From an uncultured virus (IMG/VR IMGVR_UViG_3300011361_000001) (lineage: Duplodnaviria > Heunggongvirae > Uroviricota > Caudoviricetes): 36,670 bases of DNA. The DNA is taken from positions 186,001-222,670 of IMG/VR virus record IMGVR_UViG_3300011361_000001. One strand, 5' to 3'. Under the pieces are notes generated by a model. The model saw nothing but the letters and a program-made list of their open reading frames with translations, was not told the origin of the DNA and did not search any database. Positions 2,009-18,642 of the stretch are shown here, in pieces; the stretch's first letter is position 1; every line of letters begins with the position of its first letter. Position numbers and translations under genes: made by a program.

Positions 2009-2839
2009 ATGATCAAATCCGATCGTTGGATTTACACCAAGTCTGTTCGCCCCTCTCACTTCCTCACCACAGCACCCGGTAGCGCACGGGTTGAAGGGTT
2101 TGGTTGGGAAGGCGTTACCCACACCAAAGAACAACTGCGTTCGATGGTCAATCGTTATATCGCCTCCAAGATCGATGACCACGACTTCGCTAAGCTCGAC
2201 TTCAAGCCGATGATCGAGCCGTTTGTACCGAGTCAAATTCGTCGCCGTGAAGACCACCCTTTGTCTGAGTCTGACAAGTTCGATTACTACAACGGGCTGC
2301 TGGATGCTCGGGTGATTGAGAAAGAAGACGGTCCTTACCGTGAAGGGGAGCGTTTGATCTCTTTCGGTACTTCAAGCTACGGTTACGACGTCCGTCTGTC
2401 GAATGAGTTCAAGTTGTTCACCAACCTCAACTCGGCGATCATTGACCCTAAGCGCTTTGACACCAAGTGCTTGGCTGACGCCGTGGTTCACACCGATGAA
2501 ACCGGTGACGAGTACGTGATCCTACCACCGAACTCGTATCTGTTGGGCCGAACCATCGAGTACTTCCGTATCCCACGCAACGTTACAGTAGTGTGCTTGG
2601 GCAAGAGTACTTACGCTCGCGCGGGTGCGATTGTGAACGTTACACCCATCGAGGCAGAGTTTGAAGGCAACGTGGTGATTGAGATCTCCAACTCCACGAA
2701 CCTTCCGATGAAGATCTACGCCAACGAAGGCATCTCCCAGTTCTTGTTCTTTGAAAGTGATCAAGACTGCATGACGTCTTACGCTGACCGTGACGGTAAG
2801 TACATGTTCCAAACCGGGGTTGTCACCCCACGTGTCTAA
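2009..2839 (+). CDS. dcd: dCTP deaminase with two N-terminal insertions
   Basis: [60 protein letters not shown] and YMFQTGVV motifs of proteobacterial-type Dcd. Confidence 0.93.
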
Positions 2840-2845
2840 CTAATC

Positions 2846-2872
2846 GCCCAGGGACCTTCCCTGGGCTTTATG
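2846..2872 (+). terminator. Terminator-like hairpin after dcd
   Basis: GCCCAGGGA-CCT-TCCCTGGGC then TTTATG. Confidence 0.65.
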
Positions 2873-2882
2873 AGGCTATTTC

Positions 2883-3665
2883 ATGGAGATCACACTCGAG
2901 CACCTTATCTCCGGGCAACCGTTAGGATTAACTGATGAAGAGTGCGTCTTAAAGTTGCCAGACGGACGTTCAGTGACAGGCGTCTATATTGAAAACAAAT
3001 TAGACACTGTTGCAACTAAACTAAGGGTGGCCGTGTATGCTATCCATGTACGATTTACGGGACAACATTACTTCGGTAGCACTAACGATCTTTACCAAAG
3101 ACTGGTTAATCATCGTGGTTCATTAACCCGAGGAGTACACAAGAACCGATTCTTCCGTGCGATTGATTTGATCAACCCTGAATTCGAACTGACCTATAAA
3201 GCCTTAGTGGTCGATAGCCGAGAAATCGCCTACGAGATTGAGGAGTTGTTAATTAGTTCATGTTGGGGCAAACCCGAATTGATGAATGTCCATCGTGATG
3301 TTAAATCATCACTAGGGGTGGGTCATACCGAGGAAACTAAAGAGCGCATGCGGATAAATGCTCTTGGGAGACCTCCTATGACACAAGAGGTAAAGGATCG
3401 AATTTCGCAGTCGTTAAGTAACCGTCGGTTAAATACTACTCACGCCAGTAATGTAGGTGAAGCTAATAAGCGTCGTTGGGAAGATCCCGAGTTTAGAAAG
3501 GCGTGGGCTGAGAGGAAAGGAATCAGAGAAGTTATGGTTGCCGGTGTGACTTATGAGAGTATTAGTTGTGCTGCTAGAGCACACGGCATAGGAGTTTCAA
3601 CTGCCCACAGACGAGTCAAAGACCCCAAGTATAAAGATTGGGACTTTGTGGTTCCACGCGTTTAA
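2883..3665 (+). CDS. Free-standing GIY-YIG homing endonuclease with NUMOD3-like repeats and a C-terminal NUMOD1/IENR1-like HTH
   Basis: AVYAI...HYFGST..LYQRL..H..L..G.H.N; conserved Glu (EIEELLI) and Asn; HTEETKERM; V.GVTYESISCAARAHGI. Confidence 0.85.
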   Translation: MEITLEHLISGQPLGLTDEECVLKLPDGRSVTGVYIENKLDTVATKLRVAVYAIHVRFTGQHYFGSTNDLYQRLVNHRGSLTRGVHKNRFFRAIDLINPEFELTYKALVVDSREIAYEIEELLISSCWGKPELMNVHRDVKSSLGVGHTEETKERMRINALGRPPMTQEVKDRISQSLSNRRLNTTHASNVGEANKRRWEDPEFRKAWAERKGIREVMVAGVTYESISCAARAHGIGVSTAHRRVKDPKYKDWDFVVPRV

Positions 3666-6987: not shown

Positions 6988-7236
6988 ATGCACACGCGCT
7001 TTAAACCCGGTCACAAGACTTGGAATAAAGGTGGTAAGTTGTCCAAAGAACACCGCGAGAAGGTTCGTAAGGCTGCGCTGGTGCGCGAAGCATCGATCCG
7101 TCAACCGGTGGTAGTCAATGGGGTGAAGTATCCCAACTACAGTCGCGCTGCTAAAGCTACAGGTTTGAGCCCACGTTCAATCAAACGCTACGTGTTGTCG
7201 GATAAACCTGAGCACGAAACGTACCGTCTGGGGTAA
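6988..7236 (+). CDS. Nuclease-less homing-endonuclease DNA-binding remnant (NUMOD3-like + NUMOD1/IENR1-like)
   Basis: FKPGHKTWNKG.KLSKEHREK and PVVVNGVKYPNYSRAAKATGL; AGGAGG RBS; no catalytic domain. Confidence 0.65.
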   Translation: MHTRFKPGHKTWNKGGKLSKEHREKVRKAALVREASIRQPVVVNGVKYPNYSRAAKATGLSPRSIKRYVLSDKPEHETYRLG

Positions 7237-15949: not shown

Positions 15950-16555
15950 ATGAAGCTACGCCCAAACCCTGAAGTGGATGCTTTACGTGAACAGATCATC
16001 GGCGACTTCTCGCATGCGTGGGAGTTGAACGACGGTGCGCATCGGGTCAGTCACTTCAACGACGTCGAGTCGTGTGGTAACTACATCAACGAGACCTTGC
16101 GTCTAGGCTTTGATCCTAAGCTGATCATGTTGGTGGCCTACTTCCATGACATGTTCTCGTGGTCACGCGATAACCATCACTGGATGTCTGGTGAGTGGGT
16201 GGCGACGACGAACTACCCGATCATTCAGGCCTTGACCCCTGAAGAACGTGCGTTGGTTGTTTCAGGTTGTCGTGAACACCGGGCCTCTAACAAGCAACCC
16301 TTCACCAATGCCTTTGCACAACTGATGTCGTCAGCGGATCGGGGTTTTCCTAACCCGTCACTTAAGCACATGATCCAACGTGCTATTGAGTACCGCTTAC
16401 ACAAAGGCATCGACCCTTCCGAAGCCCGTAAAGGCGCGATCACGCACATCAAAGAGAAGTTTGGATCGAATGGATACGCCGTGTATCCCTCGTTCTATGA
16501 AGCGGTGTTTAAAGCCGAGTTAAAGCAACAGCGAGACTTGGTTGATTTGTTGTAA
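15950..16555 (+). CDS. HD-domain phosphohydrolase
   Basis: AH..SH, YFHD, HH, EHRAS and ADRG motifs. Confidence 0.85.
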   Translation: MKLRPNPEVDALREQIIGDFSHAWELNDGAHRVSHFNDVESCGNYINETLRLGFDPKLIMLVAYFHDMFSWSRDNHHWMSGEWVATTNYPIIQALTPEERALVVSGCREHRASNKQPFTNAFAQLMSSADRGFPNPSLKHMIQRAIEYRLHKGIDPSEARKGAITHIKEKFGSNGYAVYPSFYEAVFKAELKQQRDLVDLL

Positions 16556-16681
16556 GTAAAAAAAGACACGTGCTCGGTATTTCTTTGAAGAGATTGCCGG
16601 CACACCCTATGTAGGACTAACCACACCAATCCTCGGTTAGTCTTATGTGCTAAACTTAACCTGAACAAATAGGTGAATTCA

Positions 16682-16756
16682 ATGGAAGTTGGAAAAGTAC
16701 GTCTTTACGGCTGCGGTGGAGATTTCAAATGTCCGAGTCCTTCACGACCTCGTTAA
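16682..16756 (+). pseudogene. Stranded original 5' end of phuZ (MEVGKVRLYGCGG, then 11 out-of-family codons and TAA)
   Basis: AGGTG RBS; the 13 codons at 16682-16720 match the PhuZ N-terminus VGTVRIFGCGG at 17475-17507. Confidence 0.85.
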
Positions 16757-17457
16757 AGACTGTTCTACCAAGCCAACCCGCTAGCATTTCTCGCAAAGAA
16801 CATTCCCATCCCGCAACATACGCGCTGCTACATCCCAGTAGCGACTCTGCTTATGTTGGCAGCACTTCGGATCTGTACAAAAGGCTTGCTCACCATAACA
16901 GTGACTTAAAGTGCGGCGTTCACAAGAACTCCAATCTTCAAAAGGCCTATGACCAGAATCCCTATTTTGATTTGGTCTTTGCTAAGGCCGAGTCTAAGGA
17001 AGAAGCGTTGTGTTTGGAACAGGAACTCCTCATTAATCACTTTGATAGTGGGAAGTTGTTTAACCTGGCCCGAGATGCAGTCAAAGCTGCGTTGGGATTG
17101 GTCTTTACTGATGAAGTGCGTGAGCGTTTGAGTCAAGCGGCTAAAGAACAGTTTGCAGATCCTGAGGCTCGTCTAGCCCAGAGTGTGCGAGGAAAAGCTT
17201 TATGGCAAGATCCTGAGTATCGTCAAAAACACGAAGGCGTGCCTAAAGCTGAACCTACCAAAAGAAAGATCAGAGACACCGTTAGAGAACTTTGGCAAGA
17301 TCCTGAGTATAGAGCCAGAGTAGCTGCATCAAGATCCGCCAACATCAAACCAGTCGTTATCGACGGGGTTACTTATCCAAACATTGGTGTTGCTTCAAGA
17401 GCAACAGGTATCCCCAGAGGTACATTACAATCTCGTAGAGCAAGGAATAAACTATGA
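16729..17457 (+). mobile_element. GIY-YIG homing endonuclease inserted in phuZ
   Basis: ATYALL...YVGST.DLYKRL.HH..DL..G.H.N..LQ; EQELL; LFN; two LWQDPEYR repeats; C-terminal VVIDGVTYPNIGVASRATGI; ATGA overlap with phuZ. Confidence 0.88.
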
Positions 17458-18431
17458 AAGAGCAAAATGCTTCTGTCGGCACTGTCAGAATTTTTGGCTG
17501 TGGTGGCCTCGGCGTCAATTTCGCAGCAAACTACATCAAGAGCCAAAGCGGTGATGGCTTTGCAGCAATCGATCCTGCGTTCATCGACACCAGCCGTTCC
17601 AACCTCGTTCCCGAGATTCCCGAGGAAAAGGTCTACATCCTCGAGAACACTGATGGCTCTGGTAAAGTGCGTCGTGAAAACCACGCCCAGATCTCCTCGA
17701 GCATCAAGCACATCCTGCAAGCCCAGCAGCCATCTGAATTCAACATCGTGGTCTTCTCGGCTTCCGGTGGTTCGGGTTCGGTTCTGGGTCCGCTGATTGT
17801 TTCGGAACTGCTGGCGCGTGGTCTGCCTGTGGTCGTCCTGACAGCCGGTTCTTCGGAATCGAACATCACGGCGAACAACACCGTCAACACCCTGAAGTCC
17901 TTGGCGGCGATCAGCAAGAAGGAAGCAGCTCCGGTTGTGACCTACTACCTGCACAACGGCGGCGACAACACCCGTTCGGCGGTAGACAAGAAGCTGGCTT
18001 TCGCAACGTCCTGCCTGTCGTACCTGGCTTCTCGCCAGAACGCAGAACTGGACACCAAAGACGTCAGTCACTGGCTGCGCTACAACCACTCGACCGAAGT
18101 GGCCCCTCAGCTCTCGCTGCTGGATATCTTCGTCGACCAGAAAACAGCCAAGAGCATCACCGATCCAATCTCGGTAGCCAGCCTCTACGCTGACCGTGAC
18201 CAACCGCACCTGACCGATCCAGTCCCGGATTACTCGTGCGCCGGTTACTTCCAGCACAAGGTCCAGGACATCGAAGAGATCCATTTCGTGATCTCAACCC
18301 AACACCTCGGTGCGACGTACGAGCGCCTCGAGGACACCCGTAACGATTACAACGCTCGTCGCGACAGCCGCGTCCAAGCCCGCAAGATTGTGGAACTGGA
18401 CGAAGCACAAGACGATGGTTTGGTTCTGTAA
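17454..18431 (+). CDS. phuZ: PhuZ phage tubulin/FtsZ-family spindle protein
   Basis: GCGGLG, FIDTS.SN, DGSGK.R, SASGGSGS signature, ELD..D T7 loop and C-terminal DDGLVL. Confidence 0.95.
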   Translation: MKEQNASVGTVRIFGCGGLGVNFAANYIKSQSGDGFAAIDPAFIDTSRSNLVPEIPEEKVYILENTDGSGKVRRENHAQISSSIKHILQAQQPSEFNIVVFSASGGSGSVLGPLIVSELLARGLPVVVLTAGSSESNITANNTVNTLKSLAAISKKEAAPVVTYYLHNGGDNTRSAVDKKLAFATSCLSYLASRQNAELDTKDVSHWLRYNHSTEVAPQLSLLDIFVDQKTAKSITDPISVASLYADRDQPHLTDPVPDYSCAGYFQHKVQDIEEIHFVISTQHLGATYERLEDTRNDYNARRDSRVQARKIVELDEAQDDGLVL

Positions 18432-18441
18432 GAGGTAGTAT

Positions 18442-18642
18442 ATGAGCCACTTGTTTGCATGTGACAACTGCGACACGGTCGATCTGGATACACTCTCGAT
18501 CCTGCCGCAACCTTGCCCGAGCGGTAAGTGGCTCTGTACCTGTTGCATGAGCCAACCCTGGCACAACCAGTTTCCCCAAGAGAAGTACGATCCCGAGAAA
18601 CATCTCGTGGTCAATCGACCCTCTGGTATTGGTCTGGGTTGA
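18442..18642 (+). CDS. Small Cys-rich zinc-binding protein
   Basis: FACDNC...WLCTCC...WH.QFP; GAGG RBS. Confidence 0.7.
   Translation: MSHLFACDNCDTVDLDTLSILPQPCPSGKWLCTCCMSQPWHNQFPQEKYDPEKHLVVNRPSGIGLG

Follow-up and report, generated by a model that had tools for sequence, protein, structure and literature searches.

The stretch of DNA analysed here (the window) comprises 36,670 nucleotides (nt), positions 186,001-222,670 of the virus record IMGVR_UViG_3300011361_000001, a 222,670-bp record with terminal repeats from an uncultured jumbo phage. It carries phuZ, the gene for the tubulin-like cytoskeletal protein PhuZ, and inside the 5' end of this gene lies the gene for a GIY-YIG endonuclease (Table 1). 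The insertion is found behind the 13th codon of the resident phuZ, where the Gly-Gly pair of the GTP-binding loop is encoded. What remains of the resident gene upstream of it, namely promoter, leader, ribosome-binding site and the first 13 codons, is a dead stub running into the endonuclease gene. The frame that opens at ATG 16682 departs from tubulin-like sequence after 16719 and reaches a stop at 16756, with GGTGGAG, which includes the Gly-Gly codons of the stub, probably serving as the ribosome-binding site of the endonuclease. The insert is flanked by an 11-nt direct repeat, the two copies of which (16709-16719 and 17497-17507) differ at one of 11 bases.

On the far side of the insert the TGA of the endonuclease gene (17455-17457) overlaps a second phuZ start at ATG 17454 (ATGA), from which a complete gene of 325 codons is read. 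Its product matches the Pfam family TubZ_C_2 with 65 bits (cut-off 27) and the Tubulin domain with 26 bits, under the cut-off of 33, and the GxGG and GGSGSV motifs are invariant when it is aligned with the PhuZ proteins of the phages RAY, PhiEaH1, Eowyn and LucasX; the best PhuZ of a cultured phage found by tblastn is 43% identical. A preliminary description of this DNA had listed the leader hairpin, an AGGTG site, the ATG at 16682, the break in tubulin-like sequence after 16719, the stop at 16756 and the ATGA overlap with a second start that continues as intact PhuZ, and all of these parts are present. It had also placed the insertion point at the GCGG codons, and this agrees with the comparison to uninterrupted alleles given below.

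Table 1. Features of the phuZ locus and of a second locus in the window, with contigs of other sequencing runs that cover the insert
Feature	Position in the window	Strand	Basis or remark
dCTP-deaminase-like gene with replacement 3' end (...GVVTPRV*)	2009..2839	+	Pfam DCD 96 bits
Paralogous GIY-YIG endonuclease gene	2883..3665	+	35% identical to the endonuclease of the phuZ locus; Pfam match
phuZ leader hairpin	16612..16646	+	11-bp stem by folding; sits between two TATG motifs
Resident phuZ ribosome-binding site AGGTGA	16672..16677	+	Sequence reading; invariant in L001-L004
Stranded resident phuZ start MEVGKVRLYGCGG, 13 codons	16682..16719	+	Collinear with the true phuZ start of L003 and L004
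Left copy of the 11-nt direct repeat GGCTGYGGTGG flanking the insert	16709..16719	+	Right copy at 17497-17507
GGTGGAG, the Gly-Gly codons of the stub	16715..16721	+	7 nt before the endonuclease ATG at 16729
Free-standing I-TevI-like GIY-YIG homing endonuclease gene, 242 amino acids	16729..17457	+	Pfam GIY-YIG; frame differs from that of the stub
Likely ribosome-binding site AAGGA for the second phuZ start	17442..17446	+	Sequence reading; inside the last codons of the endonuclease gene
Replacement phuZ 5' end MKEQNASVGTVRIFGCGG, 18 codons	17454..17507	+	In frame with the gene body; L001/L002 allele type
Complete phuZ, 325 amino acids, opening MKEQNASVGTVRIFGCGGLG	17454..18431	+	Pfam TubZ_C_2; end-to-end alignment with cultured-phage PhuZ
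Contig of run X1, 866 nt	16688-17542		29 differences, no gaps; depth 398
Contig of run X9, 771 nt	16690-17460		27 differences; depth 3.8
Contig of run X10, 510 nt	16967-17476		11 differences; depth 4.1

It is apparent from the closest relatives that the two starts belong to different allele types of phuZ. Four viral contigs (L001-L004) encode a PhuZ that is 93-94% identical to that of the window, all four are without the endonuclease, and each has one start only. Two of them have a short N-terminus (MEVGKVRL(F/Y)GCGG), with L003 starting MEVGKVRLFGCGG and L004 starting MEVGKVRLYGCGG, and the other two, L001 and L002, are of a long type that starts MSDKNVSGVGTVRIFGCGG and is the type of the second copy in the window, which has 72-74% nt identity with them over the first 60 nt. 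The leader and stub of the window are collinear with L003 and L004, the stub sharing 33 of 38 nt with L003 and 31 of 38 nt with L004, as well as 13 of 13 residues with the latter, and the homology ends exactly after GGTGG at 16719. All seven base differences between the stub and L004 are synonymous and none is non-synonymous, in keeping with a stub that was protein-coding for most of the time since it diverged from L004. Given this collinearity with the genuine start of phuZ in L003 and L004, the resemblance of stub and second start is not due to chance, and since the two copies are homologous to different natural allele types they are not the result of a fresh duplication.

These alleles also bear on what had been claimed before. 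The preliminary description predicted an uninterrupted allele with the start of the stub, which exists in L004, and endonuclease-free relatives with both starts, which it had named as contrary to its reading, number none of the four. Its argument from codon usage, that the stub is written in the style of the phuZ body and the second copy in that of the endonuclease gene, fails, as the G+C content at third codon positions (GC3) is 0.31 in the stub (13 codons), 0.39 in the second copy (18 codons), 0.41 in the endonuclease gene and 0.71 in the phuZ body, leaving the stub without the codon style of the body. Nor has the 5' end been rebuilt, as it was put, the second copy being a natural N-terminal allele type that is also found in the endonuclease-free L001 and L002. 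What stands of the earlier interpretation is therefore an endonuclease with a replacement 5' end and neither intron nor intein, and what falls is the codon usage and the rebuilt copy.

Two of the endonuclease-free contigs, L001 and L003, come from different samples and are 95-100% identical per 60-nt segment across ~0.7 kb upstream and 1.2 kb downstream, with only 42% identity in the first 60 nt of phuZ (L001 4001-4060, L003 4013-4050), and it is this patch that swaps the N-terminal allele type. Judged from this alignment the 5' end of phuZ would be a hot spot of exchange. The 60-nt patch could fit localized marker replacement around an endonuclease cut, alternatively it could be the footprint of a cassette that has been lost.

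The 242-amino-acid product of the inserted gene matches the GIY-YIG family (PF01541) with 33 bits (cut-off 22.6), has a weak match to the I-TevI DNA-binding domain (PF20987, 16.8 bits, cut-off 27) and aligns to the catalytic domain of I-TevI (PDB 1MK0/1LN0, E 0.002; low identity). In an alignment of 10 sequences, the endonuclease and nine relatives, the residues Y31, Y42, R52, H56, H65, E97 and N112 are invariant. The catalytic residues of I-TevI we take to be Y6, Y17, R27, H31, H40, E75 and N90, of which the first five align with Y31, Y42, R52, H56 and H65. HMMER pairs E99 with E75, and E97 was assigned instead, since E97 and N112 are 15 positions apart, as are E75 and N90. Four relatives of 241 amino acids in the protein database are 61-71% identical and have the same C-terminal ...NKL. 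The best match in a cultured phage is ~30% identical, a megablast of the locus against the phage collection gave no match, and protein searches of viral, metagenome and genome contigs found distant relatives only, of 25-55% identity and many of them short segments, with the exception of L038, which is 75% identical over a segment of 33 residues. The GC3 of the endonuclease gene is ~0.5 in its catalytic half and drops to ~0.3 in its DNA-binding half, where it matches that of the spare phuZ start, and the gene may be a chimera whose modules have separate origins.

The cassette is also found in other public sequencing runs. Contigs of four of them (X1, X5, X9 and X10) were aligned to window positions 16000-18500, and as they are contigs their depth is a poor measure. 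Three runs from three studies (X1, X9 and X10) have contigs that cover the endonuclease at 96-98% identity without gaps, those of X1 and X9 span the stub junction too. No RNA run is listed as containing the locus; run X1 is labelled RNA-Seq but was rated as probably DNA, and it has in addition a diverged phuZ-body contig at a depth of 1117. In X9 a second contig (record 11, depth 26.7) reaches 17491 from 14 other letters and is read as a short uninterrupted allele, so that both forms occur in one sample; together with the four of four closest relatives that are without the endonuclease this amounts to a presence/absence polymorphism at the same site. A 30-kb contig of X5 is collinear with 16700-18464, the endonuclease included, with 190 differences, and upstream of 16700 has 18 other letters preceded by a stretch identical to 17446-17471 (26 nt). 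The stub of X5 is read from these pieces as long-type, of 19 codons, ending ...VRLYGCGG like the stub of the window. That one junction is shared while the stubs differ speaks for a unit that is mobile. Of the differences listed among the runs, which omit 9 of the 29 of X1, 10 of 18 in the endonuclease gene are synonymous, as are both of those in the second copy. The endonuclease looks active, because the columns of the I-TevI catalytic residues are invariant and because 10 of the 18 listed differences in its gene are synonymous.

The phuZ locus is not the only one of its kind in this genome, as the paralogous endonuclease gene in the same window is part of a mirror case, in which the 3' end of a gene has been replaced and the resident end has been stranded, fused to the C-terminus of the endonuclease. 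The paralog scores 23.9 bits against the I-TevI DNA-binding domain PF20987 (cut-off 27) and ends ...VVPRV* (~3648-3665), which is the stranded resident 3' end of the dCTP-deaminase-like gene. In the endonuclease-free contigs L124-L126 the deaminase-like gene ends ...GVVVPRM*, and the DNA from the last codons of the paralog onward is collinear with the gene end and the downstream gene of these contigs. Another endonuclease-free contig, L123, has a gene that ends ...GVVTPRV*, as does the working copy of the window.

We consider it likely that the phuZ locus is a splicing-free homing cassette, made up of a free-standing I-TevI-like GIY-YIG gene and a spare copy, in different spelling, of phuZ codons 1-18. 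This is built on the anatomy of the locus, the two allelic origins of its starts, the absence of the insert from close relatives and the occurrence of the same cassette with another stub elsewhere. The enzyme would cut the uninterrupted phuZ alleles of co-infecting relatives near the insertion site and repair would then copy the cassette, the two homology arms being provided by the leader with the stub and by the phuZ body, whilst the spare start would keep PhuZ whole and remove or change the target. The cassette may have originated in a donor phage in which a long-type phuZ start directly followed the endonuclease gene. The final codons of this gene, AAT AAA CTA TGA, would in that case be the ribosome-binding-site spacer and start of the long-type allele of the donor, and this spacer-and-start stretch is also present before the stub in X5. 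The first cassette might have been joined to the broken resident gene by one-sided, microhomology-mediated break repair. For intron homing in T4, the available part of a review describes illegitimate repair of breaks that is one-sided and takes place at microhomologies (PMC2988022). Capture of the resident phuZ promoter, coupling of PhuZ translation to that of the endonuclease and attack on competing phages, as put forward in the preliminary description, may be further consequences of the arrangement.

The locus might instead be a one-off scar, left by accident when a single illegitimate recombination took place in an ancestor, with an endonuclease that no longer homes (being neutral, decaying or domesticated) and with N-terminal types that are an unrelated polymorphism. 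In its favour, no close relative of the endonuclease, above 38% identity over the best segment, came from the three contig collections, and none of 80 other phuZ loci show the design. Furthermore, short-type alleles are in any case conserved over their first 18 nt, and most of what separates L003 from L004 falls in the last 20 nt, so the pattern of the stub says little about conversion tracts. This explanation is nevertheless an unlikely one, as the catalytic residues are intact and the open reading frame (ORF) is free of gaps in three further runs, X5 has the same junction with a different stub, X9 holds endonuclease-bearing and endonuclease-free alleles, L001 and L003 are isogenic but for 60 nt precisely at the position of the cassette, and a second paralog shows the mirror design. 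We give considerably less weight to an in-place tandem duplication, in which the long-type ribosome-binding site and first 18-19 codons were doubled around the incoming endonuclease and then diverged, with the short stub of the window acquired by later upstream recombination. The 26 nt of 17446-17471 that X5 carries without difference before its stub as well, and the 11-nt repeat that flanks the insert, would fit such a duplication, but the stub of the window is of the short type and collinear with L003 and L004 including the leader, so that the two copies are here of different allelic origin. This account differs from the homing cassette only in how the first cassette originated.

Least probable of all, and in our view barely credible, is that a group I intron or some other form of recoding removes 16720-17507, with PhuZ starting MEVGK and the second start being unused intron sequence. 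Joining 16719 to 17508 does give an in-frame PhuZ like that of L004, and the thymidylate synthase gene of the same genome is interrupted by a GIY-YIG gene with a weak group I match (19.6 bits, E 0.21). This match, which is below the gathering score, serves as a weak positive control for the Rfam search it came from, in which the whole phuZ locus had no match up to E 1; in a separate Rfam search, 16300-17800 was free of intron matches even up to E 10. Only 9 nt of the insert lie before the endonuclease ORF and 0 nt after it, which bears out the earlier statement that the ORF fills the insert and leaves no room for a ribozyme core. The second copy, moreover, is an intact allele type with its own ribosome-binding site, it is the sole start in endonuclease-free phages, and its two listed differences in other runs are silent. 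An intein variant fails because the endonuclease lies in another frame, out of frame with a stub whose own frame soon stops.

Several observations weigh against the homing cassette, or at least against parts of it. Over the 11 bases that precede the insertion point the second copy and the L003 allele are the same, and in the 36 bases that follow it they differ at only 4. The spare end is thus nearly identical around the insertion point to an allele that is presumably sensitive, its resistance is not obvious, and any resistance must lie further upstream than those 11 bases. The X5 stub suggests that a long-type resident allele has been invaded too, in which case the long N-terminus as such is not protective, and the layout of X5 was deduced from contig pieces aligned to the window and not from the contig itself. 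A single insertion, followed by recombination upstream of it, could account for all the contigs of the other runs. The contigs searched included no donor phage in which the endonuclease gene simply lies between genes, and in a survey of 80 further phuZ loci from viral contigs none had an abutting endonuclease gene or a duplicated start, which makes the element rare. With respect to resistance, the second copy differs from L003 mainly 12-32 bases upstream of the insertion point (7 of 21 bases). Enzymes related to the present one, I-TevI for example, make their cut ~23-25 bp away from where they are inserted. The placing of these differences would fit I-TevI-like cutting at that distance, although this is only a hint.

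In this survey the N-terminal motif of PhuZ occurs once in 74 of the 80 loci and is absent from three, the remaining three having a second match that is not a tubulin start. A Pfam scan of 44 chosen same-strand upstream ORFs, from a total of ~150 and with minus-strand ORFs and near-duplicates excluded, found no endonuclease domain. A profile of 10 endonucleases was also run over 3581 stop-free segments from the 80 loci and a control stretch of the window, and it matched this control, L060 (at the edge of the locus) and L106 and nothing else. The match in L106, a distant jumbo-phage contig, is a GIY-YIG relative (908-1510, E 2e-25) that lies ~1 kb upstream of phuZ behind another gene, and the L106 relatives L105 and L107 were not matched by the profile.

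The closest known parallel is provided by the fungal mitochondrial mORF 'gene hybrids', which the available part of the source describes for atp6 of Allomyces macrogynus and for atp6, atp9, cox2 and nad3 of Glomus (PMC3630166). As far as they are described there, these mORFs likewise consist of an endonuclease ORF inside a gene end that carries a foreign end in phase with the body of the gene, the native end is stranded beside the insert and resembles the gene of close relatives, no splicing is involved, and in the Glomus atp9 case the enzyme is of the GIY-YIG type, as it is here (PMC3630166). The fungal cases in that text are mitochondrial, mostly LAGLIDADG and at the 3' end, whereas the phuZ element is in a phage and at the 5' end; the mirror case at 2009-3665 is their direct 3'-end counterpart (PMC3630166). 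Replacement at the 5' end means that the promoter, leader and start codon of the resident gene would now serve the endonuclease, and that phuZ itself has to be started anew. The pattern used for mORFs, in which the native copy is closer to relatives, takes a particular form at phuZ, where the stub matches L003 and L004, the inserted copy matches L001 and L002, and both types circulate.

In its mobility the element resembles the intronless homing of SegB, SegF, SegG and MobE of T4-like phages, for which the available text of the T4 review reports presence/absence polymorphism and local marker replacement, the latter paralleled here by the 60-nt patch of L001 and L003 (PMC2988022). The free-standing genes of T4 are there said to lie between genes and to cut a neighbour, in contrast to the present gene, which sits inside a coding sequence together with a spare gene end, and the word stem 'duplicat' does not occur in the available text of that review (PMC2988022). 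Free-standing endonucleases inside conserved phage genes and without an intron are also described in it, namely mobE in nrdA of phage Aeh1 and mobA in the topoisomerase gene of T4; nrdA of Aeh1 and the T4 topoisomerase work as two pieces, whereas here a complete PhuZ follows the insert and the 13-codon stub is redundant (PMC2988022). The design combines the layout of the fungal gene hybrids with the intronless homing of T4 (PMC3630166, PMC2988022; both as far as available). I-TevI itself sits in the self-splicing td intron of T4, whilst the present enzyme is free-standing, and of the two proteins, which have low identity, it is the catalytic domain that aligns.

A functional likeness exists with the intron endonuclease of phage PhiPA3 that interferes with PhiKZ, in that an enzyme of a nucleus-forming jumbo phage can act on a conserved gene of a co-infecting relative (PMC12908238, available part). 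The PhiPA3 enzyme is intron-encoded and targets an RNA polymerase gene, unlike the free-standing gene in phuZ (PMC12908238, available part). No endonuclease in phuZ was found in the literature, including the available parts of PMC12908238 and PMC10448857, and no phage description of an endonuclease combined with a spare gene end was found either, in a literature that mostly left subscription journals uncovered and, for the latter, excluded supplements.

Homing endonucleases that reside inside an essential coding sequence are thought to need an intron or an intein. The phuZ locus would be a third solution in phage, in which the element brings a spare gene end with it, and its documentation consists of natural alleles of both types that are empty, of a second context of insertion and of a mirror case in the same genome. 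The 5'-end version has the further property that the endonuclease would take over the signals for transcription start and translation that belong to a cytoskeletal gene. The locus also suggests that, in phages of the nucleus-forming type, recombination is concentrated at the start of phuZ, and it supplies two defined alleles with which competition mediated by the endonuclease could be studied in jumbo phages that infect the same cell. A broader proposal, which we put forward tentatively and regard as possible though rather doubtful, is that cassettes with a spare gene end are a general and so far undescribed route by which the free-standing endonucleases of jumbo phages enter conserved coding sequence without intron or intein, driving an arms race at the GTP-binding loop of phuZ. 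In such an arms race the ...VRL(Y/F)GCGG alleles may be those that are invaded (the stubs of the window and of X5, perhaps L003 and L004), and the ...VRIFGCGG alleles may be immune (every second copy, L001 and L002). If this is true, the phages of L001 and L002 would be cured or patch-converted survivors, which would explain why the 60-nt patch is the only difference from L003.

Turning to the leader and stub, the leader hairpin is kept in the consensus fold of the window and L001-L004, with four pairs altered on both sides in a compensatory manner, and a second invariant pairing is predicted in the same five sequences, between ACCT and the AGGT of the ribosome-binding site. The long leader motif has a single occurrence in the genome, and the short motif [CT]TATGT[AG] is not enriched, with 25 and 7 occurrences on the two strands of the genome. 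A scan for sigma-70 promoters and terminators gave nothing relevant, and the RNA fold around the endonuclease start is not significant (z = -1.69). Two further ideas about the stub were set aside, namely a frameshift fusion of stub and endonuclease, for which no slippery heptamer was seen by eye, and a chimeric stub of 18 nt of resident 5' and 20 nt of donor 3' sequence, as the differences between L003 and L004 are distributed alike.

There are additional elements of this family in the genome. A third GIY-YIG gene, with NUMOD3 motifs, interrupts the thymidylate synthase gene without any duplication (G000:C1:54533-56920; L015 416-2803), the two halves of which match Pfam profile positions 2-168 and 168-265. 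The Intron_gpI match at this locus lies at L015 2220-2432, and the interruption is probably an intron like the td intron of T4. Within the window, an ORF of 82 amino acids at 6988-7236 has no Pfam match and matches only the C-terminal DNA-binding part of the phuZ-locus endonuclease (residues 196-231, 44% identity). This ORF is what is left of an endonuclease gene or else encodes a DNA-binding protein that stands by itself.

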